Shown: piece after piece, positions 11,029-64,000 of the stretch
Layout: the number at the start of each line of letters is the position of its first letter
How positions within the stretch are numbered: the first letter of the stretch is position 1
DNA from: an uncultured Gammaproteobacteria bacterium
Lineage (GTDB): Bacteria > Patescibacteriota > Microgenomatia > UBA8517
Direction: 5' to 3'
Length of the DNA stretch: 64,000 bases
NCBI GenBank assembly: GCA_964600575.1
Contig: CAZRJH010000004.1
Coordinates: 6,711-70,710 of the forward strand
Translations under genes and position numbers: made by a program
Notes under the pieces: model-generated
The model's input: the letters and a program-made list of their open reading frames with translations, nothing else
Told to the model about the DNA's origin: nothing
Database searches by the model: none

Positions 11029-11102
11029 GGGCCGTTGGTATAGTGGTAGCACATAGCATTCGCATTGCTAGGACGCCGGTTCGATTCCGGCACGGTCCAC
11101 CA
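11029..11102 (+). tRNA. tRNA, probably tRNA-Ala (anticodon CGC), CCA encoded
   Basis: 7-bp acceptor stem with a G3:U70 pair, T-arm GCCGG-TTCGATT-CCGGC, anticodon stem TAGCA/TGCTA with loop TTCGCAT, and a 3' CCA. The D-arm is atypical (one mismatch). Confidence 0.7.
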
Positions 11103-48745: not shown

Positions 48746-49174
48746 TTACTTAAAGAGTCCTGAAACTATAACAAAATTTACAAATATAGCAATGTTTATA
48801 AATATCGCTATAAGGCACCATGAACAAAATGTTTTGATAACTTTGGCCTGAAGATAAAGTAAATAAAAACTAAATAAGGTAGCAGAAGAAACAGCAACAA
48901 GCATTATCTGGCTCAAGATTCTGGTTGGTCCAAAATTTTGCACAAGAATAGAAAAAACAAATACGGAGATATAATAGGCTATACCGTAAATTTCGTTTTT
49001 TATACCAAAGTGGTTTCCATACTTTGAACCTACCACTTTTGAACAATCCTCCCCCATAAAACAAAACATCTTTTTACCTTCCTTAACCTCCCTTTTATAT
49101 TGCCAATGAAGAAAATATGCATTTAGAAGGCCCAGAAATGACAGTATCCAAAGTGTGAACATGTTTGTAAACAT
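48746..49174 (-). CDS. Vitamin K epoxide reductase (VKOR) family / DsbB-like thiol oxidoreductase
   Basis: TM1 (LSFLGLLNAYFLHW), loop cysteine pair CFMGEDC, SKYGNHFGIKNEIYGIAYY, and the CSWC (CxxC) active site in the last TM. Confidence 0.65.
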   Translation of the reverse strand: MFTNMFTLWILSFLGLLNAYFLHWQYKREVKEGKKMFCFMGEDCSKVVGSKYGNHFGIKNEIYGIAYYISVFVFSILVQNFGPTRILSQIMLVAVSSATLFSFYLLYLQAKVIKTFCSWCLIAIFINIAIFVNFVIVSGLFK

Positions 49175-49659: not shown

Positions 49660-50603
49660 AGAAGATATTTAATCTGGAATTTATAGAAAAGGCGGCGGAA
49701 AATAAACAAGCAGTTTTTAAAGCAGTCAACGCTGTCGCAACTTTTTATTTTCTTCAGATTGCTTTGGCTTTTATTAATCTAATGAAGATCGGAGCGGTGG
49801 ATCCCGAACGAAGCGGATTTCTTCCGATCTGGCCAATGAGCTGGGCGGGTAGTCTACCTTACTCCTTTACATCGCAACTCCTCGCGATGTTTTATGTGGC
49901 TGCTTCTTTTGTTGCAATATTTTTTTGGAGGAATAGATTTGCTAGACTTTTGGTTTTTGTAAGTTTTTGGCAGGTTCATGCTCTAGACAGCTCGTTTGGC
50001 TTTATTAATCATTTTTACTACCTTATTTTTTATACGCTCTTTATTTTCACCTTCTTACCGGACACTAGCGAAAGTAAAGATTTGACCAATGACCAATCAA
50101 AGAAGTTTTTGTTGGTTTATTGGGGGGCAATAGCCGGGATATTTGCTACATATACTTTGTCGGGTTTTTGGAAAGTGTATTGGGGAATTCTGGCAATTAT
50201 TGACGGTAGGCTTAGTTCTTTTTCTATGATGGCCTTTCCCGAGCATGTAGCCAGAAAAACCATATTCGAAAGTCGAGAATACTTTTATAGCGGCATAGTT
50301 ATTTCTAACTCAATTCTTTCCTGGATTGCTTATCTTGGGACAATATATATAGAAGTAGTCGCAGTTCTGGTTGCTTTTAAGCCGAGCCTTCATAAAATTT
50401 GGGCTTTTATTTTTATTTTTATGCATGTGGGAATTCTTCTGGTTATCGGAATTCCTTTTTTTGAATCACTGTTTGTGCTGTGTATCATTGTATTGAACTC
50501 TCCATTTTCCGGTAGTCTGCAGTTAGGTAAGATGTTTTCCGACCTTCCCATATTCGGATATTTTTTAAAGAAAATATTTAGAACAAACGGAGTTGATTAT
50601 TAG
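49656..50603 (+). CDS. Polytopic membrane protein (315 aa), possibly HTTM-like
   Basis: 8-9 hydrophobic helices and overlapping start/stop with the upstream gene. The family call is speculative. Confidence 0.4.
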   Translation: MKKIFNLEFIEKAAENKQAVFKAVNAVATFYFLQIALAFINLMKIGAVDPERSGFLPIWPMSWAGSLPYSFTSQLLAMFYVAASFVAIFFWRNRFARLLVFVSFWQVHALDSSFGFINHFYYLIFYTLFIFTFLPDTSESKDLTNDQSKKFLLVYWGAIAGIFATYTLSGFWKVYWGILAIIDGRLSSFSMMAFPEHVARKTIFESREYFYSGIVISNSILSWIAYLGTIYIEVVAVLVAFKPSLHKIWAFIFIFMHVGILLVIGIPFFESLFVLCIIVLNSPFSGSLQLGKMFSDLPIFGYFLKKIFRTNGVDY

Positions 50604-51361
50604 AAGTAAATTAGAGTATTAGGAAGCATCCCGGAAATTTTCGCCTGTTCTTCTTTTGTAATGTTGTTATCTCCTAGATACAAAAACTTAAGCTGGCTAA
50701 GATTTGCAATACCGGGAGGAAGAGACTTTAAACGATTGCCGTGAAGATCTAGTGAGACTAAGGAGTTTAGGTTACCTATCTCCTGGGGAAGGACGGAAAC
50801 TTTGTTGTTGGCCAGTGACAGATTTTTGAGTGAGGAAAGGCCCCCAATTGACGCGGGAACGGATTTAATTTTGTTTCCCGACAAATCAAGCGTTTCTAGA
50901 TTGTTTAAGTTGGAAATGGCAGAATCTACTTTATTTAGTCTGCTGTCTTTTACTTGCAGCCTTGTTAGAGATCCCATTTTGTAAACTTCTTTAGGGATTG
51001 CGCCTATGTGGCTGTATTCAATTACAAGCACGTTTATCTGTGCGGAATTTTCGAATACTTTCTTTGGAATCTTGTAGATATCGCTAATGTAGTCAAAACC
51101 AACCCCTGTACCCGAAACATTTTCTTCCTTTTGTGCAACCAGCCTCAATATTAGTCCCGGAATAATATATTTACCTTTGTATAAAAAAGAACCTAATACC
51201 GAAACTAAAATTCCAGCAAATATTGCAGATATCAAAAGACCTTTGTTGACTTCCGGTTGTGCTTCTACTTCTTGGACGGGAACCTCTGCTATTGTCGTTT
51301 GTTCTGGGGCGGGGGTCTCTTGTGGTGTTTGCTGTTGAGTCTGGGGGTTGTCGGGGTTCAT
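50600..51361 (-). CDS. Leucine-rich-repeat (LRR) protein with N-terminal Pro/Gln/Thr-rich region and TM anchor
   Basis: Tandem LxxLxLxxNxL units (LETLDLSGNKIKSVP, LKNLSLANNKVSVLP, LVSLDLHGNRLKSLP, LKFLYLGDNNI). Confidence 0.75.
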   Translation of the reverse strand: MNPDNPQTQQQTPQETPAPEQTTIAEVPVQEVEAQPEVNKGLLISAIFAGILVSVLGSFLYKGKYIIPGLILRLVAQKEENVSGTGVGFDYISDIYKIPKKVFENSAQINVLVIEYSHIGAIPKEVYKMGSLTRLQVKDSRLNKVDSAISNLNNLETLDLSGNKIKSVPASIGGLSSLKNLSLANNKVSVLPQEIGNLNSLVSLDLHGNRLKSLPPGIANLSQLKFLYLGDNNITKEEQAKISGMLPNTLIYF

Positions 51362-51460: not shown

Positions 51461-51922
51461 ATGGTGTCTTTAATAATGAAATACATTAAATATGTTTTGT
51501 TTTTTTTGGCCTCTTTTGTTATTTCTTTCTTAGTTCTAAACTCTTTGCCGGTTAGTTATTTGAATGTAAAGGATCAAGCAAAGGGAACGACCATTGAGGT
51601 TGGTTTTGTTAGGTTATCAAAATTATCGTTCTTGGTAGTTCAAACAATCGACCCTGTAAGCGGTTTAACCGACAAAGGTGGATTTTTAAATAATCCCAGT
51701 CCATTGCCCCCGGGAATATATAGGAATGTAAATCTTTCGTTAACAAACGTAAGCGGCGAAATCCCGGACAAAGTGGCCGTGACTTTATACGAAGATACAA
51801 ATAAGAACGACTCATTCGACGGTTACTACGACCACGAAGACGGGGTGATTATAGAGGAAGACAAACCAATTTTTAATCTAGTTAACAAAAAGATAATTAG
51901 AAAAGTAATTCTTTTAAAATGA
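51461..51922 (+). CDS. Hypothetical exported protein (153 aa)
   Basis: N-terminal hydrophobic anchor. Confidence 0.45.
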   Translation: MVSLIMKYIKYVLFFLASFVISFLVLNSLPVSYLNVKDQAKGTTIEVGFVRLSKLSFLVVQTIDPVSGLTDKGGFLNNPSPLPPGIYRNVNLSLTNVSGEIPDKVAVTLYEDTNKNDSFDGYYDHEDGVIIEEDKPIFNLVNKKIIRKVILLK

Positions 51923-51923
51923 A

Positions 51924-53153
51924 ATGAATATTTATAAAAAGGTAAATAAAAGAATTGCCATAATGTCGTTTATAATTGCGGTTCCCGTTCTCATTTATTT
52001 ATCGGGACATTTCAACAAAAATAACTCATTAGATAAGTCATTTTTGAGGTCAAAAGTTGCTTCAGTGTTAAAAAAATGTAACAAGGGGACCAACACCCTT
52101 AATTCGATAGATCAAAGATGCGTATATAAAGAGTTTCATAAGTTTGTTAACAAAAAGAATGTTTCCTTAGTTGTCGCCTCTTTAATGGATATTTTTTCCA
52201 AAGAAGATAACTCCAGAAATTTGGGTACCAATAATTGTCATATTCCTGCTCACATTGCGGGTGAGATTGCTTATCAGGACGGTGCGAATTTAGATGAGCT
52301 TTGGCAAAAGTGTTCCAATAACTGTACCTTTGGTTGTTTGCACGGCGGTTTTCAGGGAATGTTTAAAGAAAAGGGGCCGGCACTTTTGGATAATCTGGAA
52401 ACTGCCTGTAAAGTTTTAAATAATCCGGATGACGCCGATCTTAGAAGTTGTTGGCACATCATAGGCCATGGTTTGGCTGAATACTTTGGGTCCAATCTTG
52501 ATGCGGCGGTTAACAAATGCCTAAGTCTCCCTAACGAAAAACAGCAACGCCACTGCATAATGGGTGTTAGGATGGAGTTTATTGTTGCCTCTGTTGATAA
52601 CACTAGCCCCATGCCGCCACTAAAAGGTTTTGAGTATTTGGATTTTTGTAAAAAATTTCCATCAAAGTTTGTTGAGGACTGTTATGCCGAAGCAGCTTAT
52701 TATCAGATTCGTATAACAGACGATGTTAATCAGATGGTTGATGTTTGCAAGCTGGTTCCTAACATTGGCGATTCAATAATACGCTGCGTAACGGGGTCGG
52801 GGTCCGTATTCTTTTTTACGAATAAAGCCAATGCCCAGGTAATTCACGATTTTTGCGCCAGATACGAAAACAAGAAATATGAGAATGAATGTGCAATAGG
52901 ATCCGCAGACTTGTCGTCTTCGGAATGGGACCATCTTCAAACTGGTGCCAATATTTGTCTTTTAACAACCCCGGACTTTGTAGGTGAGTGTTTGGCTTTC
53001 TATGGCGGTAGAGTCCAATTCTACAATGGTTTAGCAAAGCGTAAAGAAATTTGTTCCGAGTTATCCGCTAAAGACGAAAAAAGCTGTATGGGTAGTCCCA
53101 AGATGGATAGGGAATACCTAACTCCGGTTACATTCACTCTTCAGGAAAGATAA
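51924..53153 (+). CDS. Exported Cys/His-rich repeat protein, paralogue 1 of 8 (no N-terminal His-rich beta domain)
   Basis: Signal anchor plus ordered motifs CHIPAHIAGEIA, CWHIIGHGLAEYFG, CxxGxx.... 22 Cys. Confidence 0.6.
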   Translation: MNIYKKVNKRIAIMSFIIAVPVLIYLSGHFNKNNSLDKSFLRSKVASVLKKCNKGTNTLNSIDQRCVYKEFHKFVNKKNVSLVVASLMDIFSKEDNSRNLGTNNCHIPAHIAGEIAYQDGANLDELWQKCSNNCTFGCLHGGFQGMFKEKGPALLDNLETACKVLNNPDDADLRSCWHIIGHGLAEYFGSNLDAAVNKCLSLPNEKQQRHCIMGVRMEFIVASVDNTSPMPPLKGFEYLDFCKKFPSKFVEDCYAEAAYYQIRITDDVNQMVDVCKLVPNIGDSIIRCVTGSGSVFFFTNKANAQVIHDFCARYENKKYENECAIGSADLSSSEWDHLQTGANICLLTTPDFVGECLAFYGGRVQFYNGLAKRKEICSELSAKDEKSCMGSPKMDREYLTPVTFTLQER

Positions 53154-53328: not shown

Positions 53329-54435
53329 TTATATTTTTTCGTTATGTACCAAGACACCGCCTGCAAAGTAAGCGTGGTAAGGGCCGGGGAGAGACAAGTT
53401 GTAAACAGTGTTGGTTTCGTTGACATTCTCGATAGATTCGATAGCGTAGGCACTTCCGTCGGAATTCATTAGAGTGTCTCCGATAACGAGAGTGTCGGCG
53501 TGTACCCAAGCGTTTTTACTCGGAGACCAGACAAGATGGTTGCCCGTAACTTTTAGACTATCGTTTACGAGTAAGTAGCCACTAACATTTTCGTGTACCA
53601 AAAGTCTACTAACCACTTGGGGGAAAGTTCTTTTGTTTGCTAAATCATAAGATAGAACTATGTCTCCAGTTTTGATGTCTTCAATAGACTTTGTAGAACC
53701 GTCGGCAAGTGTCACTTGAGTTCCTGCTAAGAAACAACTGGAATAGTAAAGTTGGGAATATGAGTAGGCGGCATAGCTGGATTGACCGTAACCGTAGTAC
53801 GTGCCCTGTGAATAGCTGTAGTAAATACTTTGACCGTAACCGTAGTAGGCTGACTGAGCGTATGCGTAGTAAGTTGATTGTGAGTAAGAGTAACAAGTAT
53901 TTGTTAAAGAGAAAGACGATGCACCACAGTCTACAGTCGAGTAAGAATCAAAAAGACCAAGCCTTCTGTAGCCTGATGCCGTAGCTGTTCTGAAGTTGGT
54001 TAGAGTAAAGTTGTCTGCCCATCCATCTGCGTCCGTATCTTGCAAATATATTGGGCTTCCGGATTTGATAGAGCCTCCCGCCTGAACAGACAAACTCCCT
54101 GTACCGATGGTTAAAGAACCAAATGCCAGTGTTCCACCGTTATTTATTGTTATGTTTCCACCTGTCGTAAGTGATAATTGTGCAGAATTAGTGGTTGAAG
54201 CGTCTGTTGTTCCATTATCCACACCTTCGACATTGCTTGCAGCGATAGAACAAGTGGTTGCCCAATTAAGCACATTCTTGGTAGTGGCAGTCATGGAAGA
54301 ATAAAAGTTACAAGCTGCTTTAGCGGAAGAGGGTGTTAAAAGTAGAACCAAAAAAGCGAATACTACTGCGCTTAATGATTTTGTATATGTTTTTGAGGTT
54401 AACATTATTTTTTGCTGCTTAGGACCTTGGAGCAA
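53329..54435 (-). CDS. Exported Tyr/Ser-rich repeat protein ending in a Hint (Hedgehog/intein-like, BIL-type) domain
   Basis: Signal peptide, a (YY/YG/QS) low-complexity tract, then CFLAGTQVTLADGSTKSIEDIKTGDIVLS ... VLVHNEKI, with the N-terminal Cys and C-terminal His-Asn signatures of a Hint domain. Confidence 0.6.
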   Translation of the reverse strand: MLQGPKQQKIMLTSKTYTKSLSAVVFAFLVLLLTPSSAKAACNFYSSMTATTKNVLNWATTCSIAASNVEGVDNGTTDASTTNSAQLSLTTGGNITINNGGTLAFGSLTIGTGSLSVQAGGSIKSGSPIYLQDTDADGWADNFTLTNFRTATASGYRRLGLFDSYSTVDCGASSFSLTNTCYSYSQSTYYAYAQSAYYGYGQSIYYSYSQGTYYGYGQSSYAAYSYSQLYYSSCFLAGTQVTLADGSTKSIEDIKTGDIVLSYDLANKRTFPQVVSRLLVHENVSGYLLVNDSLKVTGNHLVWSPSKNAWVHADTLVIGDTLMNSDGSAYAIESIENVNETNTVYNLSLPGPYHAYFAGGVLVHNEKI

Positions 54436-55000
54436 CCGTAACCGTTGATGTTTTACCGTTTGATGACTTTGCCGTTAGAGTTAAGATGTATTTGTAGTCT
54501 ACAGTGTCGTTTAGACTGGCACTGCCGGACCAAACCCCGTCTGCTGCCGATCCCGATTTAAGACTAAGTTCAATGTTAACCGATCCACGATCCGTAGTTA
54601 AAACTCCGGTCAAAGTAGACACTCCTGCCGTGTCGTTGGCTTTGACTGTTAAGTTAAGTGTCTGTCCTTTTTTGACATCCAAGGGATCAAAAACAACTTG
54701 GGTAACAGTAGGGCCTTCGTGTTGACCCATGCCCACCTGGTAAGTTCCCTTAACGCCATCATCCGGTCTTAAGGGGATTGGTGTAGGAGTTGGTGTTGCT
54801 TTTGGCTTTGCTGTTGCCGATTTTGTTATATCCGTGACTTTAATGTCTTTTGGTAAATCCGCTGTTTGATTTGTAGTGTCTACGGAAGCTGGCGGGGTAA
54901 TGCTTTTCCAAACAAAATAAAAAGAGGCACCAAGAACGACAGCAATAAAGAGTAAAATTACTACAATCGAAACACCGCTATTGTCAGATTTTCTTTTCAC
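54419..55000 (-). CDS. Exported protein with Thr/Pro linker and Ig-like beta domain, hypothetical
   Basis: N-terminal TM or signal anchor, a KPKATPTPTPIP linker and a beta-rich C-terminal domain. Confidence 0.45.
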   Translation of the reverse strand: MKRKSDNSGVSIVVILLFIAVVLGASFYFVWKSITPPASVDTTNQTADLPKDIKVTDITKSATAKPKATPTPTPIPLRPDDGVKGTYQVGMGQHEGPTVTQVVFDPLDVKKGQTLNLTVKANDTAGVSTLTGVLTTDRGSVNIELSLKSGSAADGVWSGSASLNDTVDYKYILTLTAKSSNGKTSTVTVAPRS

Positions 55001-55090
55001 TGTGTAATAGTAGTATTAATGATGTATTTTATTAAAGTCTTTGTCAAGCCCTGGATTTAAGCGTTTTTTAAGTTTAACAATACTCAAATA

Positions 55091-56353
55091 ATGTGTGGAA
55101 GTTTTTTAGGAAGTGATAAAGTATTATATTCGAAAGTACGAATGCATAAACAATTTATTTACAACTTTTTGTTCGTAATTTTTGCCTCGGTTTTAATATT
55201 TGGAGGATTGGTTCAAACTTTTGGCGGTAGCTTTTACCCGGAATTGTCTTATCTAAATAAAAAAAATCTTCAGTTTTCGGATTTACAAAAATTTTTTAAA
55301 CAAATGGCAGACAAAAAAGGAGCATTGTATGCCTTCAGTGCTTTAAAAATTGCAAAACTACCTCCAAATACAGATGTTCACCTTTTGGGCCATACGATTG
55401 GGGACATTCTTTACAAACAAAAAGGTCTCGACGGGATAAAGTACTGTACCCAGGATTTTAGGAACTCTTGCTCTCACTCAATAGTTGTAGGTCTTTTTGT
55501 AGAAAGAGGATCGTCTGCACTGGATGATATTGCAGAAGTTTGCCGTACCGCACCGGGTGGGACTGGGGCATATGGTATGTGTTTCCATGGTTTAGGGCAC
55601 GGAATACTCGCCTTTGCCGGGTATAATATGGAAAAGGCTGTAGAACTTTGCAGAAAGGCGGGCACAGAACAAACAGGTTATATAGAAACTGCAGAGTGTG
55701 TTGGGGGTGTCGTTATGGAGATGGTTGCTGGTGTTCATGACAAATCTGCTTGGGAGAAGGAGCGCGGAAAATACCTTTTGTCGACCAAACCTCTATCTCC
55801 TTGTACAGAGCCTTTTGTACCTGCGGTTGCCAAGCCAAACTGCTTCCTTTATATAACCCCTCATCTTTGGGAGGCTGCCGGTGGAGATTTGGGTAATCCT
55901 ACGGATGCTGTCTTTTCAAAATCCTTTGCATACTGTGAACAACTCAAAGGCGAAAACGCGGTTTATAAAGAACTATGTTATGGCGGTTTTGGAAAAGAGT
56001 TTGTCGGTCTTGCGCAGTCGCGTGACATTAGAAATATCGGGGCAATGGGAGAAGCGGAGCTTGGCCTTGTTTATAAATGGTGTAATCTGGCGGGTAATAT
56101 GTTTGGTATAAAGAGTTGTGTTAAGCAAGCAATAAACTCACTATATTGGGGCGGGGAAAACGAGTTGGGTGCCACAATAAAATTTTGTGGTATTGTGACG
56201 GATGAAGAGATCAAAGAGTCCTGCTTTAATCATGTTATTGGTTCTTTTAGGTTTTATCAAAGGTCGAACCCTAAGAAACTAGAACAAAGTTGTAAAAATC
56301 TTCCGGAACCATACAACTTGAGATGTGTTGATCCGGGTTTTATTGAAAAATGA
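55091..56353 (+). CDS. Exported Cys/His-rich repeat protein, paralogue 2 of 8
   Basis: Motifs MCFHGLGHGILAFAG and ECVGGVVMEMVAG. The likely true start is the internal Met at about 55142 (MHKQFIYNFLF...). Confidence 0.6.
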   Translation: MCGSFLGSDKVLYSKVRMHKQFIYNFLFVIFASVLIFGGLVQTFGGSFYPELSYLNKKNLQFSDLQKFFKQMADKKGALYAFSALKIAKLPPNTDVHLLGHTIGDILYKQKGLDGIKYCTQDFRNSCSHSIVVGLFVERGSSALDDIAEVCRTAPGGTGAYGMCFHGLGHGILAFAGYNMEKAVELCRKAGTEQTGYIETAECVGGVVMEMVAGVHDKSAWEKERGKYLLSTKPLSPCTEPFVPAVAKPNCFLYITPHLWEAAGGDLGNPTDAVFSKSFAYCEQLKGENAVYKELCYGGFGKEFVGLAQSRDIRNIGAMGEAELGLVYKWCNLAGNMFGIKSCVKQAINSLYWGGENELGATIKFCGIVTDEEIKESCFNHVIGSFRFYQRSNPKKLEQSCKNLPEPYNLRCVDPGFIEK

Positions 56354-57519
56354 AGATTAAAACGGTTAGCGGATTGTTGCTCCTGACATTTTTTTATTTT
56401 GCCTTTTGGAGCAAGCCATTGACGGGAAATATTGATCGTAGATTACAACAATGCAAAAAAAGTGACCAAATCTGTTACAAGAATATGATTGTAGAGGCCT
56501 TTGATAAATATGGTCTCAGCAGGTCTTTAGATTTGGTGGATAAAATTTACTCTAGAGATTCAACGTTTGGTTCTACTTGTCACGATATTGGCCATCTTTT
56601 GGGGTCCAAAACATTTAAACTTTTTAAACAAGGAAAAGATTTTGAGATTACGTCAAAGGTAGCTTTCTGCTCCTACGGCTTTTATCACGGATTTATGGAA
56701 ATCTTAGCATCGGAAGGAGATGTCAAAAGGGCCAGAGATTTTTGTAAATATGTGGACAGCCGAGTTTCCAAAGAGACACCCGACGCCACTTTGCAATGCT
56801 TTCATGGGATAGGGCATGGTTGGGTGAATATTCACGGTGATAAAGCTTTGGTTGGTAACGATTTAGGAATAGCTAAAAAAGGCTTAAGCTTATGTCGGGA
56901 GGTTGCATCCACCGATTCGGAATTAAGCCGTTGTGCAACGGGAGTTTTCAACGGACTGTCGGTTTTTTACGCAAACGAAGAATATGGTTTAAAAATCAAC
57001 AAAAGCGACCCTATGTGGATTTGTAAAAAAGTTGAAAAAGAATTTCAAGACCCTTGTTATGTGAGTATGAATGCTATTTTATTTTCAATAACCGGCGGCG
57101 ATTTTAGAAGCTCTGCAAAATATATCGAATCGATAGATGACGATGTTGTAGCATCACACGCCATGATAAATTTGTCATTGCCCTTTAGTCTTTCGGAGAT
57201 CAACAATAACGACCATTCTAAAAGCGTGGCCGTTTGTAAAAGTCTTCAGGATCGTTTGATTATCCCTTGTTTTCAAGGGTTTGCATTTGCCTTTATGGAA
57301 CACGGAGAACCCGGCAAAGAATATGTTAGAGCGGTTGAGTTTTGTAAGGTAAACGGTTTGACGGATAAAGAAGAAAAAGGATGTCTGTCCTATATCTATT
57401 CTTATATGGCCCAATGGTATCCAAAGGAAAAGGCTTATTCTATATGCCGGTCAGAAAACGGGTATGAACAATTGTGTAAAGAAAAATTGGAAGAAGGAAT
57501 TAATGGACTCCCTAAATGA
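56350..57519 (+). CDS. Exported Cys/His-rich repeat protein, paralogue 3 of 8
   Basis: Motifs CHDIGHLLG, FCSYGFYHGFM, CFHGIGHGWV and CATGVFNGLSVFY. Start overlaps the upstream stop by 4 nt. Confidence 0.65.
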   Translation: MKIKTVSGLLLLTFFYFAFWSKPLTGNIDRRLQQCKKSDQICYKNMIVEAFDKYGLSRSLDLVDKIYSRDSTFGSTCHDIGHLLGSKTFKLFKQGKDFEITSKVAFCSYGFYHGFMEILASEGDVKRARDFCKYVDSRVSKETPDATLQCFHGIGHGWVNIHGDKALVGNDLGIAKKGLSLCREVASTDSELSRCATGVFNGLSVFYANEEYGLKINKSDPMWICKKVEKEFQDPCYVSMNAILFSITGGDFRSSAKYIESIDDDVVASHAMINLSLPFSLSEINNNDHSKSVAVCKSLQDRLIIPCFQGFAFAFMEHGEPGKEYVRAVEFCKVNGLTDKEEKGCLSYIYSYMAQWYPKEKAYSICRSENGYEQLCKEKLEEGINGLPK

Positions 57520-58676
57520 AAAAAATAATGGTCGTTCTCAGTTTAATAATTTTATTAGGGTATTTTGCTGTATCAAAAGAATGGCCAAAGGTTAATCTTT
57601 CCTTGGACAAAATATCCAAAGCAATCATCTACAAATGTGCAGACGCTAATACTAAAAGCGTTTGTTACGAAGAAGAGATTCCGAAATTAACAAATGTCTT
57701 AACAATGGAACAGACATTTGATGTTACTGGAGTTATTCAATCAAAAGTTGCCGATTTTCCTTACTGTCATGTTTTGGGTCATAAGTTGGCGAGCATTGAG
57801 ACAAAAAAGGATCCCTCTCAATGGAAAAGTGTTATGGCACGTTGCCCGGCAGGGACTTGTTCCAATGGCTGTGTTCACGGAGCATTTCAGGAAAGATACA
57901 AATACGAAGACCTTTCCAAAGCGGAGTTCGTCTTAGCTAAAAAAGACTTTGAAACAGTTTGCGAAAAAAGCGATTCGTTTAATCCCACAGGTCTTGAACA
58001 AGGCAGTTGTTATCATGCCCTTGGGCATTTGATGATGTATCTTACCAACGCAGACATAAAAGAATCGGTAATTGCCTGCGACGAAGTGGCTCTTAAAAGT
58101 GACGGAAGAGATTTTAGGAATGTTTGTTATGCCGGGGCATTTATGCAGATATATCAACCCCTAGACACAGACGATAAATCTCTTGTAAGTAAGTTTAACT
58201 TAAACTCGGAAAACTCCTGGCAATTTTGCTCAACTTTTGAAGAGTCAAAAAGAAACGCCTGCTGGGAAGAGTCCTGGCCGGTTTTTCTTCAACAAATTAG
58301 TGTCGGGCGGGGGCTATTGGATTTTTGTGGGATGCTTGGAACGGGAAGTGAAAAGTGCGTAAGAGACCTATTGTATATAATGCCGATTCAATTTAGATTT
58401 GACTACAAATCAATTTGGACTTTCTGCAAGGGCCTTACTCAAAAATACCAAGGACAGTGTTTTGCTATGACAGCCTCAAGAATTTTGGAAATCGATAAAA
58501 GAAACGGGCAAAAAACCATCGACTTTTGTATGTCTCTAGATACTACAGATAAAGATGTTTGTCTAAATCAGCTACTTACCGATTTGCGTTTTGATTTCAC
58601 TTTTGGTTCTCCGGGATACAATTCTGTTTGCGACAAATTACCGGAACCTTGGAAATCTAGATGTTTTTCAAAATGA
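57516..58676 (+). CDS. Exported Cys/His-rich repeat protein, paralogue 4 of 8
   Basis: Motifs CHVLGHKLA, CVHGAFQERY and CYHALGHLMMYL. Start overlaps the upstream stop by 4 nt. Confidence 0.65.
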   Translation: MKKIMVVLSLIILLGYFAVSKEWPKVNLSLDKISKAIIYKCADANTKSVCYEEEIPKLTNVLTMEQTFDVTGVIQSKVADFPYCHVLGHKLASIETKKDPSQWKSVMARCPAGTCSNGCVHGAFQERYKYEDLSKAEFVLAKKDFETVCEKSDSFNPTGLEQGSCYHALGHLMMYLTNADIKESVIACDEVALKSDGRDFRNVCYAGAFMQIYQPLDTDDKSLVSKFNLNSENSWQFCSTFEESKRNACWEESWPVFLQQISVGRGLLDFCGMLGTGSEKCVRDLLYIMPIQFRFDYKSIWTFCKGLTQKYQGQCFAMTASRILEIDKRNGQKTIDFCMSLDTTDKDVCLNQLLTDLRFDFTFGSPGYNSVCDKLPEPWKSRCFSK

Positions 58677-60088
58677 GTAGGCGAAACATTTTTATTTTCT
58701 TCATCACAATCTTCGTTTTAGCTTTAAATGTAAAACTCAAATACAGAGTGGAATTGAAATCTAATGGATATCAACCTTCTGAAATAACTATAAAAAAAGG
58801 AGATAGTGTTAAATTCTTTTCCGAATATTCATCTTTCTGGCCTGCATCCAACCCCCACCCAAATCATACGCAGAGTCCGGATTTTGATCCCAAAAGGGCA
58901 ACAGCAAAAGACAAAAGCTGGGATTTTACCTTTGATAAAGCCGGAGTATATACATATCACGATCATTTGAACCCTTTTTATAAAGGCAAAATCAAAGTTG
59001 TCGAAACTAATCTATTTGTTTATTTAAAAAACAAATTCGCAAATTTTACGAGAGTTAGTTTTGAAAAACACGATTCGCAATACATAAACAAAGTTTCCGT
59101 TTTGTGCAAAGGCGAAGAATGGGAGGAACGAAAAAATCTTATTGATTGTTGGAATTCATATTTTTCGGAACTTGTTAAAGACTTTGGTCCAAATGAAAGT
59201 TTACGGATACTTGATGCACTTACCACAGGAGGTTTTGTATCGTTATCTGATTGCCACAACTTTGCAGATCAGATTGGTTCAGACTCATATTGGCAGAAGG
59301 TGTCGGGTAAATCTTTTACTTTCGATGATACTTTTGGAATTTGCAGTTACGGTTTTTTCCACGGCTTTATGTTGGAAGATGTAAGCCACGGCCAAGATTT
59401 TGAAGCTTCATTCAAACTTTGTAACAAGTTGGCAAATTATGGGGAAAATATGGTTAATGAATGTTTTGTAGGGGTGGGCAACGGGTTGGCATATTATTTT
59501 TGGAATACTTTGGGCGAAGATGTGGTGTCGATAGTTGGTAAATCAAAAAGCGTCTGTGAGTCGGTGGGTAAATATAAAGATTCATGTGTTTACGGTGTAT
59601 ACGGCGGCATGGAGCACTTGTATCTTAAGATACACGGGTCCAGTTTGTCTATCGATCAGACGAACCCTTATTTTGTGTGTTCTAAGGAATTGGGTGATAA
59701 GTATTTGCCATATTGTTACGAAAAGATAGACAGGCCTCTTTTTTCCGATTTAAATTTTGATATTGTCAAGATCGCGTCTTGGATAAACAAGATTCCGAAC
59801 CAAGAAATAAGAAAAGCAGAGGCAAAAAGCATCGGAAACTTTGTCAGCCAGTTTTGGATCTATAAGGACGAAGCTGATTTTGTACTTGCCAAGAGCAAAT
59901 GTTATGAATTTAGAGGTATTCTTTATTCCAGCTGTTTGGAAGGTGTTTTTGAAGGAATTTTGTCTAATTTAAATGAGTCCGGGAGGGCGGATGAGTTTAA
60001 GTGTTTAGGCAAAAGTCTCACGAGTTCTGAGATAAATATTTGCTTATTAAAAAAGAAAGAAACTATCGAAGCTGTCAAAACGTTTTAA
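58661..60088 (+). CDS. Exported protein: N-terminal His-rich cupredoxin-like beta domain plus Cys/His-rich repeat domain, paralogue 5 of 8
   Basis: N-terminal domain KKGDSVKFFSEYSSFWPASNPHPNHT...YTYHDHLNPFYKGKIKVV, then CHNFADQIG, CSYGFFHGFM, CFVGVGNGLAYYFW and CVYGVYGGMEHLY. Confidence 0.65.
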   Translation: MFFKMSRRNIFIFFITIFVLALNVKLKYRVELKSNGYQPSEITIKKGDSVKFFSEYSSFWPASNPHPNHTQSPDFDPKRATAKDKSWDFTFDKAGVYTYHDHLNPFYKGKIKVVETNLFVYLKNKFANFTRVSFEKHDSQYINKVSVLCKGEEWEERKNLIDCWNSYFSELVKDFGPNESLRILDALTTGGFVSLSDCHNFADQIGSDSYWQKVSGKSFTFDDTFGICSYGFFHGFMLEDVSHGQDFEASFKLCNKLANYGENMVNECFVGVGNGLAYYFWNTLGEDVVSIVGKSKSVCESVGKYKDSCVYGVYGGMEHLYLKIHGSSLSIDQTNPYFVCSKELGDKYLPYCYEKIDRPLFSDLNFDIVKIASWINKIPNQEIRKAEAKSIGNFVSQFWIYKDEADFVLAKSKCYEFRGILYSSCLEGVFEGILSNLNESGRADEFKCLGKSLTSSEINICLLKKKETIEAVKTF

Positions 60089-60091
60089 ATC

Positions 60092-61516
60092 ATGGCAAAA
60101 AAAATACTAACATCTTTTTTGATTGTGTGTGCTGTTGTTTTCGCGGTAATTATTGTTTACCAACCTCGTTTAGAGGTGGTTCGAATGACTCCTTCCGGGT
60201 TTGCCCCTTCGTACTTAACAGTCATCAAAGGACAGTCTGTTAAATTTGTTTCGGATGGTGCTTTGTTTTGGCCCGCCAGCGATCCGCACCCAAATCATAC
60301 GAATTTTTCGGAATTTGACCCCAAAAGTCCGATAAAAGACGGCGATTCCTGGACATTCAAATTTAGTAAGTCCGGTTTCTTTGAATATCACAACCATTTA
60401 GAACCAAGCTCAAGGGGTGCGGTTAAGGTTATCGAGACGAACCCTGTTGACTACGCTTTAATACACATCAAAGATTTATATAATAAGTTTTTTGTAAAAC
60501 ACGATATTAAATATGCGATCTCGCTAGAAGAAATGTGCTCGAAATTAAGAGAAGATAGGGTTAAATATATAGAATGTTGGTCGGAAACCTTTACTAACAT
60601 TACTCGTGACTTTGGTGTTACGGAGGCAGTTAAGACTCTGAGTCTTGTTAATTCTTCGTCCGGAATAACATTGGGCGATTGTCACTTGATAGCAGACCAA
60701 ATAGGCACAGATGCTTATTGGCAGTTTTCTTCCGGAAAAAAATTTGAATTTACAAAAGATTTCGCCTTATGTGATTTTGGATTTTTCCATCACTTTATGT
60801 CGGAACATGTGAGTCATGGCCAAGACTTTTTGGGATCGGAGACTTTGTGTTCATCTCTCGACGAAACTCTGGTTGATCAATGTTTTTTTGGTTTAGGTAA
60901 CGGTCTGGCCTATTATTTTTGGGGGATTTATCCGACAAGTTCTGATTTAATAGTTTCTAAAGGTCTTGGGGTTTGTAAAAAACTGCAAACGAACGGCAGA
61001 ACATGTGCTTTAGGTGTATATAGCGGGATTGATCACTTGTTCGAGGGTAAACATGGGTCGGAGTTGGTGGTAGATATCAAAGATCCGTTCTCTTTTTGCA
61101 GGATGCAACCTGATCGCGATCTGGCTATATCCTGTTACGAAAGAATGATTCCTTCGATATCTCATGTTTTAGGTAAAGAATCTAGCCAAAATGCAAAAGT
61201 GCTAATTTCTTGGGTTTACAAGATGCCATATTTTGCAAGACAGGCTTCTATGAGACGATTGGGAATAATGTTATCCGAGGAAGAATCGGTAAAAGTTAAT
61301 CCGATCCCAAATAAGGCGTTAGATATTTGCAGAAACCAAGCGGGTGTATATTCGGGTGAATGTGAATGGGGGGTGTTTTATAATGTATTTCTAAATGGAG
61401 CTTCGGCAACAAGCGAATTTTACGGAAAAGATTGTGAAAGTTTTGGAAGCTTGAAGGATGAGGAAAAAACGAGATGTCAGGACGCCTATGATTCAACTGT
61501 AGATTTTAGAAAATGA
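60092..61516 (+). CDS. Exported protein: His-rich cupredoxin-like domain plus Cys/His-rich repeat domain, paralogue 6 of 8
   Basis: N-terminal domain KGQSVKFVSDGALFWPASDPHPNHT...FEYHNHLEPSSRGAVKVI, then CHLIADQIG, CDFGFFHHFM, CFFGLGNGLAYYFW and CALGVYSGIDHLF. Confidence 0.65.
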   Translation: MAKKILTSFLIVCAVVFAVIIVYQPRLEVVRMTPSGFAPSYLTVIKGQSVKFVSDGALFWPASDPHPNHTNFSEFDPKSPIKDGDSWTFKFSKSGFFEYHNHLEPSSRGAVKVIETNPVDYALIHIKDLYNKFFVKHDIKYAISLEEMCSKLREDRVKYIECWSETFTNITRDFGVTEAVKTLSLVNSSSGITLGDCHLIADQIGTDAYWQFSSGKKFEFTKDFALCDFGFFHHFMSEHVSHGQDFLGSETLCSSLDETLVDQCFFGLGNGLAYYFWGIYPTSSDLIVSKGLGVCKKLQTNGRTCALGVYSGIDHLFEGKHGSELVVDIKDPFSFCRMQPDRDLAISCYERMIPSISHVLGKESSQNAKVLISWVYKMPYFARQASMRRLGIMLSEEESVKVNPIPNKALDICRNQAGVYSGECEWGVFYNVFLNGASATSEFYGKDCESFGSLKDEEKTRCQDAYDSTVDFRK

Positions 61517-62790
61517 ATAACCGCAATAAAATTATATTAATATCAATTGCAACCCTTGGCGTCTTATTGGGGATTTTAATCACCAACTACAAAGCAGGTA
61601 GCGGAAAGGCAAAAACACATATTGTCACTTATAATTCCAAAGGTTTTAACCCCAGCACCCTAACCGTTGCTAAAGGAGATAGGATTGAGTTTAAAAACGA
61701 GACGAAAGAATTGTTTTGGCCCGCCAGCGATCCTCACCCTTTACATAGTTTATATCCGGAATTCGATCCGAAGGAGCCGGTGGATGCAGGATCTAATTGG
61801 ACGTTTAAACCTGTTAAAACCGGGGTTTGGAAATTTCACGATCACCTGTTTCCGAGCAACCGCGGAGTTTTGACTGTTCTTTCAAGTGAGAACGCCGATA
61901 TTGCAGGAAGGGTGTTAAAAAGGGACGAGATAAAGTCGTTGATAAGTAAAAAAGGTACAGAAGACGCATATAGCTATCTAAAATCTATTTATGATCCTTC
62001 CACATCTTTTGCTCATTCCACATTTCATTTATTTGGTGAATTGCTTTTTGATAAGCTTGGAACAAGAGGAATAGAGCTTTGTGATAATTTTGGGGGCTTT
62101 GGTTGTTACCATGGGCTTTTTGTAAAGGCAGTTGCCCAAAGGGGGATAGAAACAGCCGTCGAGTTAGATAGGATTTGTGTGGAAAAATTCGGCGTACAAG
62201 GTTTGGGATGCCCTCATGGTATAGGACACGGCCTGGTTGAATACTTTGGCCTTGGAAAAGTAAATGAGGCTCTTAGTGTTTGCCAAAAACTTTCTTGGAA
62301 AGGGATGTTATTTGGCTGTCAAGGCGGCGTATTTATGGAAAACAATTTTCCTACGATTTTTGACAAAGAAGGGATAGGAAATGTTCAAACAAGAGAGGCA
62401 CATGGAAATTTACTACAACCTTGTTTGGATGTTGACCCCGTCTTTCGCCCTGCTTGCTATTTTGAACAAGCTTCATGGTGGAACAACGTACTAAAGCATG
62501 ACTTTCAAAAGATTGGAAACTTTTGCAACTCACTTAAAAATCAAAATGAATACGAAAGCTGTTTGATGGGAGCTGGTAATACCGCAGCCGAAACCTCGCA
62601 TTACAACAAAGAGTCGGTTGTCGACTCCTGCAAACAAGTATATGGAACCAAATCTCAGGCGCTTTGTAGGGCAGGCGGATCCTGGGCATTTTTTGCAAAT
62701 CCGGAGAAAAGAAACGAATCTGAATCTTTGTGTACAGACTTGGGTATCTATTCTGATTTGTGTTTGTCAAAACGGGTAATTGTTAAATAG
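61513..62790 (+). CDS. Exported protein: His-rich cupredoxin-like domain plus Cys/His-rich repeat domain, paralogue 7 of 8
   Basis: N-terminal domain KGDRIEFKNETKELFWPASDPHPLHS...WKFHDHLFPSNRGVLTV, then CYHGLF, CPHGIGHGLVEYFG and CQGGVFMENNFP. Confidence 0.65.
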   Translation: MNNRNKIILISIATLGVLLGILITNYKAGSGKAKTHIVTYNSKGFNPSTLTVAKGDRIEFKNETKELFWPASDPHPLHSLYPEFDPKEPVDAGSNWTFKPVKTGVWKFHDHLFPSNRGVLTVLSSENADIAGRVLKRDEIKSLISKKGTEDAYSYLKSIYDPSTSFAHSTFHLFGELLFDKLGTRGIELCDNFGGFGCYHGLFVKAVAQRGIETAVELDRICVEKFGVQGLGCPHGIGHGLVEYFGLGKVNEALSVCQKLSWKGMLFGCQGGVFMENNFPTIFDKEGIGNVQTREAHGNLLQPCLDVDPVFRPACYFEQASWWNNVLKHDFQKIGNFCNSLKNQNEYESCLMGAGNTAAETSHYNKESVVDSCKQVYGTKSQALCRAGGSWAFFANPEKRNESESLCTDLGIYSDLCLSKRVIVK

Positions 62791-62791
62791 G

Positions 62792-64000
62792 ATGAATTCT
62801 TCTAAAAAGTTGATTTTTTTCTTCGTGTTGGTGATTCTTTTGTCGATGTTATATGTTTTTTTGGGAACAAAAAAAACAAGAAATTATGAAGTTAAATACA
62901 CGAATAGAGGCTTCATGCCTGCAAAGCTAGATTTAAAAAACGGCGATGTTGTTACTTTTGTAAACAATTCCGATTTGTACTTCTGGCCTGCAAGTGATCT
63001 TCATCCATCTCATCTTTTATATCCGGAATTTGATCCCAAAAAGGCTTTGGAAAAAGGTGAAACTTGGAAGTTTGTTTTTAGAAAAAGTGGTACTTGGGGA
63101 TTTCATGATCACTTAGACCCAACAAAAAGGGGTGAAATAAAAATAGGTGATGATTTTATAATCAAATTTTTTGTTAATTCGGTAGACTCGCTGAAAAGAG
63201 CCAAAGTTTTCCTAACTGGCAGGAAAACTTTTTTTGACGGAAAGATAAAAAGTTGTCCAAGTGGGGTGGATTTTGAAACTGGGAGAAGATGTTGGGAAGC
63301 AGCAATATCGGAAGTTAAAAGACTTTTTGGAGTTCAAGCCTCATTTGATTTTTTGAAAGAAGCAATTTCTAAAAATCCTGAAATTATGGGTACCTGCCAT
63401 TATTATTCTGAGTATATCGGGTTTTTGGTTTACGAAGACTATTTTAAAGGTGATAGCCCCAAAGTTTACGAGTCGGCGGAAATTTGCGGCTACGGTTTCT
63501 ATCATGCGTTGTTGCAGGAATGGGTTAGCCATAACAAAAACATTTCGGAGTCTAAAGACTATTGCGAAAGCTTAGAAAAAATTCCCAATCTAAATTTTAG
63601 TAAAGGAAACTGTATTCAAGGAGTTGGTATAGGCTTGACCTTTATGAATGCATCAAGCTTTTACGGGGAGGACGAAAAAATCATATCTAAGTCACTGGAA
63701 GATTGTAGTTTGGCATTCAAAGATGCCGTTTACAACAGCTTGTGTAGCGATGGTGTTTTTTCGGGACTTGCTCATTTGTATTTTGGAGACCATGGCATTT
63801 CGTTGTCAACCGACGATAATAATCCTTTTTGGGTCTGTAATAAATTTAAAGGCGACATTAAGACAAAGTGCTATTTATATAACACCGAGGTAGTTTATTA
63901 CAGATTAAACAAAGATTTTAACAGGACAGTAGATTTTATAATCAAGTCAGCGAATAGAGAGGTTATAAACAAGTCGTTGGAAAGATTGGGCACGACATTG
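62792..64000 (+). CDS. Exported protein: His-rich cupredoxin-like domain plus Cys/His-rich repeat domain, paralogue 8 of 8 (3' end outside window)
   Basis: Open frame from the ATG at 62792 to the window end (403 codons, no stop). Motifs FWPASDLHPSH...FHDHLDPTKRGEIKI, then CHYYSEYIG, CGYGFYHALL, CIQGVGIGL and CSDGVFSGLAHLY. Not in the ORF track because it lacks a stop. Confidence 0.6.
   Translation, partial: MNSSKKLIFFFVLVILLSMLYVFLGTKKTRNYEVKYTNRGFMPAKLDLKNGDVVTFVNNSDLYFWPASDLHPSHLLYPEFDPKKALEKGETWKFVFRKSGTWGFHDHLDPTKRGEIKIGDDFIIKFFVNSVDSLKRAKVFLTGRKTFFDGKIKSCPSGVDFETGRRCWEAAISEVKRLFGVQASFDFLKEAISKNPEIMGTCHYYSEYIGFLVYEDYFKGDSPKVYESAEICGYGFYHALLQEWVSHNKNISESKDYCESLEKIPNLNFSKGNCIQGVGIGLTFMNASSFYGEDEKIISKSLEDCSLAFKDAVYNSLCSDGVFSGLAHLYFGDHGISLSTDDNNPFWVCNKFKGDIKTKCYLYNTEVVYYRLNKDFNRTVDFIIKSANREVINKSLERLGTTL

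Follow-up and report, generated by a model that had tools for sequence, protein, structure and literature searches.

A terminal A-type bacterial intein-like domain on a predicted surface protein in a conserved Patescibacteria gene cluster

We analyzed a 64-kb stretch of contig CAZRJH010000004.1 (hereafter the window) and found that its minus-strand gene 53329..54405 encodes a predicted secreted protein whose very last domain is a canonical A-type bacterial intein-like (BIL) domain of the PT-HINT family. The domain is put to an uncommon use: the protein that carries it is a conserved, non-toxin surface protein, and it has natural orthologues that lack the Hint domain altogether and look like the processed product. 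We propose that the Hint domain is a self-removing C-terminal pro-domain of a secreted surface protein, a reading that the sequence comparisons below make probable by a modest measure. Hint domains are known in three roles, as inteins, as Hedgehog processing domains, and as pretoxin modules of bacterial polymorphic toxins.

The terminal Hint domain

The window contains a minus-strand open reading frame (ORF) at 53329..54435, and a preliminary description of this ORF had taken TTG 54435 as its start. That start overlaps the upstream gene and adds 10 residues that are missing from all homologues. Public gene calls and the N termini of all homologues agree instead on ATG 54405, which is almost certainly the true start. 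Read from there, the protein consists of a signal peptide, a 140-residue head, a 53-residue tyrosine-rich tract, a 132-residue Hint domain, and Glu-Lys-Ile before the stop, with the following coordinates:

53329..54405, minus strand: coding sequence of the Hint-terminated, predicted secreted protein (358 residues plus stop, start ATG 54405; identical to public gene call P0001; alignment A1)
54316..54405, minus strand: predicted signal peptide, residues 1-30, MLTSKTYTKSLSAVVFAFLVLLLTPSSAKA followed by AC (basic n-region, hydrophobic core, AxA site, SSAKA/AC)
53896..54315, minus strand: head module, residues 31-170 (short predicted beta-helix, four conserved Cys, DxDADGW Asp cluster; AlphaFold2, Foldseek, alignment)
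53737..53895, minus strand: Tyr-rich tract, residues 171-223, CYSYSQSTYYAYAQSAYYGYGQSIYYSYSQGTYYGYGQSSYAAYSYSQLYYSS (Y-x-Y-x-Q-x-x-Y octads, ending YYSS right before Cys224)
53341..53736, minus strand: Hint domain (A-type BIL/PT-HINT), residues 224-355 (Cys224 as Cys1, T287-x-x-H290, H354-N355; Pfam, sequence matches in the PDB, alignment A1)
53329..53340, minus strand: Glu-Lys-Ile tail and stop codon (sequence)

The domain scored 47.8 bits with Pfam PT-HINT (PF07591), whose cutoff is 27.7; the match has E = 2.3e-12 and extends over profile positions 5-136 of 137. Pfam Hint (PF01079) scored 30.2 against a cutoff of 29.7, over positions 6-93 of 213 only, and Intein_splicing, Hom_end_hint, and Vint appeared as sub-threshold Pfam echoes, with the Hom_end_hint match spanning the first 31 residues only. 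The 132 residues form a mini-domain without a homing endonuclease. Sequence matches to solved BIL and pretoxin Hint domains in the PDB included 8w20 (6.8e-11), whose Hint comes from a protein called 'intein C-terminal splicing domain', 6tmm (2.7e-7), and 2lwy (1.6e-6), the bacterial intein-like domain of Clostridium thermocellum; the Hint of 6y75 was also among the best. Similarity of this degree greatly exceeds what chance would produce. An NCBIfam scan of the Hint protein and its neighbors gave no meaningful match.

In an alignment of 23 sequences (A1), Cys1 (C224) and H354 are invariant, N355 is present in 22, and the block-B residues T287 and H290 are at least 90% conserved; these catalytic positions are kept across 39-83% identity. 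The defining A-type BIL features, as summarized in PMC7765530, were all matched where testable in sequence. Because Cys1, TxxH, and His-Asn are retained in ∼23 orthologues, we conclude that the Hint domain is an A-type BIL, and the same retention makes autoprocessing of the upstream polypeptide the natural reading. The preliminary description had recognized a full Hint module running from CFLAGTQV to GVLVHN, with a low-complexity tract of about 50 residues before it. Both observations are borne out: the tract measures 53 residues, the module closes exactly three residues (EKI) ahead of the stop, its PT-HINT score lies above the curated cutoff, and the catalytic Cys, Thr/His, and His-Asn are present on alignment. 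The residue after the Asn (+1) is E, W, H, K, V, A, I, or once T, and neither Cys nor Ser occupies this position among the 23 orthologues. The tails of the family are 1-8 residues long, each with a basic residue (Lys in 22 of 23, Arg in P0028).

Orthologues are 337-401 residues long and all end 1-8 residues past His-Asn. Among them are genes on contigs of 73 to 494 kb, with the next gene 7 to ∼160 bases past the stop. The Hint protein is not truncated. In a comparison with an 83%-identical orthologue, nonsynonymous divergence (dN) was 0.07 in the Tyr tract, 0.08 in the head, and 0.15 in the Hint domain; synonymous sites were saturated, which precludes a ratio to synonymous divergence (dS). Low dN together with saturated dS indicates that every part of the protein is under purifying selection. 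An analogy to hypervariable secreted proteins, drawn in the preliminary description, does not fit these values or the Tyr tract, which is 98% identical in amino acid sequence between the two proteins.

Hint-less orthologues, other cargos, and the proposed maturation

Two orthologues have no Hint domain. P0026 (locus L015) and P0040 (locus L016) lie in the same gene cluster as their Hint-bearing relatives, with the Cys-rich array and the partner gene described below, and stop just past the Tyr tract, ending in ...GSYAQSY and ...GSYSQVY. We found no remnant of a Hint domain in six frames at either locus. According to public gene calls, there is a 4-base overlap between the stop and the convergent gene of the Cys-rich array in L015, and in L016 that gene opens 2 bases past the stop. 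The presence of these orthologues in the same cluster suggests that the head and Tyr tail with a free C terminus are a functional end state. Judged from its sequence, the Hint-less form would match the product expected from N-terminal autocleavage of the window protein.

A phmmer search with the Hint domain and tail against 1.84 billion representatives returned 14,610 matches at E ≤ 1e-3 and 75 at E ≤ 1e-30. The ranking favors multi-Hint proteins, and fractions among the best 150 representatives, to which the following counts refer, therefore describe a biased sample. More than one Hint stretch was present in 100 of them, while the Hint was terminal (tail of 10 residues or fewer) in 49; a Lys or Arg is found in 44 of those tails, Ser or Thr stands at +1 in 2, and Cys at +1 in none. 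The cargos ahead of a terminal Hint included other Tyr tracts, Cys/Gly peptides of 25-30 residues, T4SS_pilin domains, and other Cys-rich proteins. Three of these proteins (P0029, P0136, and P0186) consist of T4SS_pilin, a Gly-rich linker, a terminal Hint, and a short basic tail; P0136 (L018) matched T4SS_pilin (PF18895) at 34.1 bits against a cutoff of 26.6, and the other two fell just below the cutoff. A Hint-made C-terminal thioester on a VirB2/TrbC-type pilin could serve C-terminal processing or head-to-tail cyclization. Five further proteins (P0147, P0150, P0166, P0183, and P0220), of ∼185-200 residues, carry a signal peptide, a Cys/Gly-rich peptide of 25-30 residues (e.g., GGCGGCGGSGCGGCG), and a terminal Hint, and by this layout look like precursors of small Cys-rich peptides freed by a Hint 'follower' domain. 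In P0082, P0087, P0098, P0110, P0143, P0158, and P0213, 2 to 11 Hints stand in tandem, joined by linkers of 3-12 residues that also open with HN-x-K (for example ...LVHN-MKSGGGGGGG-CFIAGT...). The occurrence of the same terminal Hint on unrelated cargos is as expected of a generic self-removing module.

The upstream half of the window protein is modular as well. Its signal-peptide layout is common to 22 of 23 family members. A lipoprotein was ruled out: the residues ahead of the conserved Cys (AKAAC, FADC) form no lipobox. AlphaFold2, run on a 32-sequence alignment, predicted mature residues 1-140 as all beta with a confidence score (pLDDT) above 90, falling below 50 in the Tyr tract. A Foldseek search of the head against the PDB gave no significant match, with weak beta-helix likenesses at most; the best was tapirin 6n2b (E 0.14-0.24; 77 columns at a root-mean-square deviation of 1.7 Å for E 0.24), and TibA, HpmA, and ice-binding proteins also appeared. 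Columns C2, C22, D93, D95, D97, D129, C130, and C141 (mature numbering) are conserved among 32 proteins that include Hint-less architectures. The head Cys residues probably form disulfides, and the Asp cluster (DxDADGW...DC) would form a Ca-type site. We also considered head-to-tail cyclization by native chemical ligation and rejected it, as the conserved Cys is the second and not the first residue of the predicted mature chain, where it probably takes part in a disulfide. Head modules occur with Tyr repeats only (P0026, P0030, and P0040), with a Cys-rich C-terminal domain (P0025, P0027, P0041, P0044, and P0050), with DUF2341 (P0037), and with a LamG insertion plus Hint (P0024); the Cys-rich C termini had no match in Pfam. 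Thus, both halves of the protein, the head and the terminal Hint, are modular.

Between them lies the Tyr tract, which in the window protein contains 19 Tyr, 13 Ser, 6 Gln, 5 Gly, and 5 Ala among its 53 residues. Orthologue tracts span 27-100 residues, are nearly uncharged, and contain 26-41% Tyr plus Trp (33-41% except in the divergent P0045), with three to nine copies of the octad in each orthologue, P0045 excepted. Tandem Repeats Finder detected no DNA-level tandem repeat in the tract, which indicates that the octads are not a recent expansion. The tract is reminiscent of uncharged prion-like, FUS-type low-complexity sequence, and it shares with plant extensins the Y-x-Y motif, which in those proteins is cross-linked.

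We envisage the following maturation. The protein would be exported by the Sec pathway and lose its signal peptide, leaving a chain in which a beta-helix head held by disulfides is followed by an uncharged, Tyr-rich tail and an A-type Hint domain that would act once, in cis. Cys224 would attack the carbonyl of Ser223, an N-S acyl shift in which the T287-x-x-H290 block assists, and the thioester so formed would be resolved, by hydrolysis as the default or possibly by transfer. A mature protein of ∼193 residues ending in the Tyr tract would thereby be released and the 15-kDa Hint discarded. The mature protein may then act at the cell surface with its membrane-anchored partner, which it probably binds, and in some way also with the neighboring array of Cys-rich/cupredoxin membrane proteins. 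As summarized in PMC7765530, A-type BILs autocleave experimentally at the N or C terminus (Amitai 2003, Dassa 2004).

Three points weigh against this proposal. The strict conservation of His-Asn and of a basic tail residue is unexplained if N-terminal cleavage alone mattered. The Hint-less orthologues mark the domain as dispensable for the system, in which its benefit might be to assist folding, to set the timing, or to supply a reactive thioester. Finally, the signal peptide was assigned by eye.

The conserved cluster and alternative explanations

Immediately upstream of the Hint gene, and in the same orientation, is a 193-residue gene that the preliminary description had overlooked and that proved to be its conserved partner. 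The features that surround the Hint gene in the window are as follows:

54419..55000, minus strand: partner gene, 193 residues (N-terminal transmembrane anchor, Pro/Thr linker, ∼110-residue beta-rich domain; alignment A3)
55019..55047, minus strand: promoter-like site TTGACA-17-CATCAT upstream of the partner/Hint pair (10 of 12 consensus positions; the number of such sites is not above shuffled expectation)
51924..53153, plus strand: Cys-rich paralogue P1, 409 residues, convergent with the Hint gene (A4 HMM, E = 1e-120; alignment)
55091..64000, plus strand: seven more Cys-rich paralogues, divergent from the partner/Hint pair, the last running off the window (A4 HMM, alignment)

The partner had no match in Pfam and none in a profile search of the PDB, and it is probably co-transcribed with the Hint gene. 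To compare loci, we scanned hidden Markov models (HMMs) of the Hint protein (A1), the upstream 193-residue protein (A3), and the Cys-rich paralogues (A4) over all fetched loci; a GTDB scan with one degenerate pattern yielded 6 loci. One layout is common to nine independent loci that carry the Hint (the window, L003, L005, L006, L007, L008, L010, L013, and L014), with five to eight Cys-rich paralogues on one strand and, divergent on the other, the ∼190-residue partner followed by the Hint protein. One or two further paralogues come after the Hint gene in seven of these loci; the exceptions are L007, which is different there, and L014, which stops within the Hint gene. When the Hint-less orthologues are included, the partner adjoins its gene in 11 of 11 independent loci, the pair diverging from four to eight Cys-rich paralogues, and gene order is kept down to ∼39% identity.

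At a twelfth locus, L017, the partner-like domain and the Hint protein are one polypeptide, encoded by an 853-residue ORF (L017 7600..10161, plus strand) of which the public call P0045 (386 residues) is a truncated version and which two small minus-strand calls overlap. This ORF opens with a signal peptide, followed in order by PG_binding_1, Bact_surface_Ig-like, and the partner-like domain; after these come a reduced head and a Tyr tract, and a terminal Hint closes the protein with LVHNKIEQ. Directly upstream of the head module, the A3 HMM matched the partner-like domain at E = 8e-10, and hhalign gave it a probability of 90%; four A4 paralogues follow 2 kb downstream of the fusion. That two adjacent genes of the window form a single polypeptide in L017 supports a physical interaction of their products.

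These comparisons bear on the genomic claims of the preliminary description. It had correctly placed the Hint gene on the opposite strand between Cys-rich paralogues (51924..53153 and 55091..56353, both plus strand) and suggested either a functional linkage to the array or an insertion by a mobile cassette. The linkage is strongly supported by the same order in 11 independent loci and the fusion in a twelfth. The insertion is not: comparison with related genomes uncovered synteny to ∼39% identity, without repeats or mobility genes.

What would become of the Hint-made thioester is the point on which two alternatives diverge from self-removal by hydrolysis. A Hedgehog-like reaction would pass it to a specific nucleophile, whether amine or hydroxyl, which could belong to the partner, the cell wall, a lipid, or a host-cell surface, anchoring the cargo covalently through its C terminus. 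A secreted cargo with a terminal Hint is the architecture of Hog proteins (PMC2362128), the membrane-anchored partner is always encoded next door and is fused in L017, and the module also sits on pilin-like cargos, where C-terminal activation would make chemical sense. We nevertheless regard such transfer as possible but fairly unlikely, given that the Hint-less orthologues, unable to make a thioester, are still retained in the cluster, that only a three-residue tail follows the Hint, with no sterol-recognition or adduct-recruiting region, and that the L017 cargo already has its own peptidoglycan-binding anchor. In a splicing-like ligation, by comparison, Asn355 would cyclize and the alpha-amine or Lys side chain of the tail would attack the thioester, so that the mature protein ended in ...YYSS-EKI. 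The strongly conserved His-Asn and basic tail residue would be explained by this scheme, and splicing or ligation has been reported for BILs that have no +1 nucleophile (Dassa 2004, as cited in PMC7765530). It is made doubtful by tails that are a single Lys, by Hint-less orthologues that end in ...AQSY and ...SQVY without such a tail, and by the lack of a conserved +1 nucleophile and of effectively any C-extein; the recurrence of HN-x-K in tandem-Hint linkers moreover suggests that the motif belongs to the domain and not to an extein.

Two further explanations were weighed. If the Hint were non-catalytic, it would stay attached as a structural or binding module, as in some pretoxin Hints that have been solved within the intact protein (8w20). 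We judge this improbable, and slightly more so than tail ligation, because every catalytic position is conserved over 39-83% identity and because the Hint-less orthologues and varied cargos point to a detachable module. That the gene is a decayed PT-HINT toxin, or a mobile cassette inserted in the paralogue array, is suggested by the name of the best Pfam match ('Pretoxin HINT') and by the strand of the gene, opposite to that of the array, and is effectively refuted by the following: the 175 bp between its stop and the convergent gene hold no toxin or immunity ORF, and the same is true of orthologous loci; the short tail and gene order recur in nine Hint-bearing loci to ∼39% identity; strong purifying selection acts on the gene; and neither repeats nor integrase- or transposase-like neighbors are present. 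The self-removing pro-domain thus remains the reading that we favor.

The eight Cys-rich paralogues of the window are membrane-anchored proteins of 386-475 residues; 11 of their Cys are invariant, and the motifs CHxxGH and CFHGxGHG are common to them. A Pfam scan assigned them to no family, and homologues were found only in the same clusters of the candidate phyla radiation (CPR). AlphaFold2 modeled a paralogue as a transmembrane helix plus a large all-alpha domain (pLDDT 89.8). Three of them (58661.., 60092.., and 61513..) add an N-terminal domain of predicted cupredoxin fold, which Foldseek matched to plastocyanin and amicyanin with TM-scores of 0.7-0.8 normalized to target length; the Foldseek list was dominated by these cupredoxin matches and gave no classification of the all-alpha domain.

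The cluster is flanked by genes for VKOR, a disulfide-formation enzyme (48746..49174, minus strand), a transmembrane-anchored leucine-rich-repeat protein (50600..51361, minus strand), and a DUF7282 protein (51461..51922, plus strand). The leucine-rich-repeat and DUF7282 genes are again beside the cluster in L003, L006, and L008, and this recurrence suggests a larger conserved surface-protein neighborhood. Only a tRNA (11029..11099, plus strand) matched Rfam at gathering threshold in the window. Cluster-bearing records are labeled Patescibacteria, Microgenomates, or Saccharibacteria. The cluster is also carried by L009, L011, and L013, which are third-party-annotation metagenome-assembled genomes titled 'uncultured Gammaproteobacteria bacterium', a label that is probably wrong.

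Comparison with known systems

The chemistry we propose is predictable, and the surprise lies in its context and in the breadth of cargos that carry a terminal Hint. If self-removal or thioester transfer holds true, it would represent a general maturation route for secreted proteins of CPR bacteria, whose surface biology is almost unknown, and a source of natural self-cleaving tags that need no C-extein. The analysis also flags a conserved, uncharacterized surface cluster composed of the partner, the Tyr-tailed beta-helix protein, and five to nine Cys-rich/cupredoxin paralogues. A more far-reaching idea, which we put forward as speculative and rather unlikely, is that terminal BIL-A Hints (HN-x-K) are a widespread, cargo-independent C-terminal activation module in CPR/Patescibacteria, a counterpart of Hedgehog that supplies a thioester for covalent attachment or cyclization, beyond simple cleavage, of cargos that include Tyr-tailed proteins, T4SS pilins, and small Cys-rich peptides; here it would couple the Tyr tail to the partner or envelope and, with the cupredoxin/Cys-rich array, build a surface structure of episymbionts. 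In the full-text literature, from which many subscription papers fall outside, we found no link between Hint domains and CPR/Patescibacteria or between Hint domains and pilins, and no description of a toxin-less terminal PT-HINT.

Of the known systems, the window Hint belongs by sequence, above the Pfam cutoff, to the A-type BIL/PT-HINT family of C. thermocellum BIL4 (2lwy) and the pretoxin Hints of Neisseria MafB, CdiA, and Streptomyces UmbC. It shares with A-type BILs the Cys1, TxxH, and C-terminal His-Asn residues; like them, it is as small as a mini-intein, contains no endonuclease, is followed by a variable +1 residue, and resides in a secreted host. In the known BIL and PT-HINT examples, however, the domain is embedded in a variable protein with a C-terminal toxin or another extein behind it, whereas here the Hint is the last domain, with a three-residue tail, and its host is a conserved, syntenic family under purifying selection. 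A pretoxin Hint is defined by a toxin domain C-terminal to it and an immunity gene; neither accompanies the window Hint. Nor does the protein have the features of a canonical intein, since there is no C-extein, the +1 residue is Glu, and the Hint-less orthologues end where the Hint would begin.

Hedgehog and Hog proteins, in which a terminal Hint removes itself and esterifies the cargo with cholesterol, resemble the window protein in having a signal peptide, a cargo, a terminal Hint, and a predicted N-S acyl shift at Cys (PMC2362128), but the window protein lacks a sterol-recognition region and has the His-Asn that is missing from Hog-Hint. By sequence it is nearer to BIL-A than to Hog, PF01079 being covered at its cutoff only over positions 6-93 of 213. 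A related description is that of secreted bacterial proteins with a C-terminal divergent Hint-like domain in Myxococcus, Photorhabdus, and Yersinia, among others (Buerglin 2008, PMC2362128; Dassa & Pietrokovski), which are likewise secreted, with conserved Cys residues upstream and a C-terminal Hint. As described, those proteins are set apart from the window protein, whose Hint is a canonical BIL-A with the full C-terminal motif, in another phylum and on another cargo. What is new here is the setting of the BIL-A, which stands at the very end of a conserved surface protein, with effectively no extein after it, in a conserved CPR cluster.

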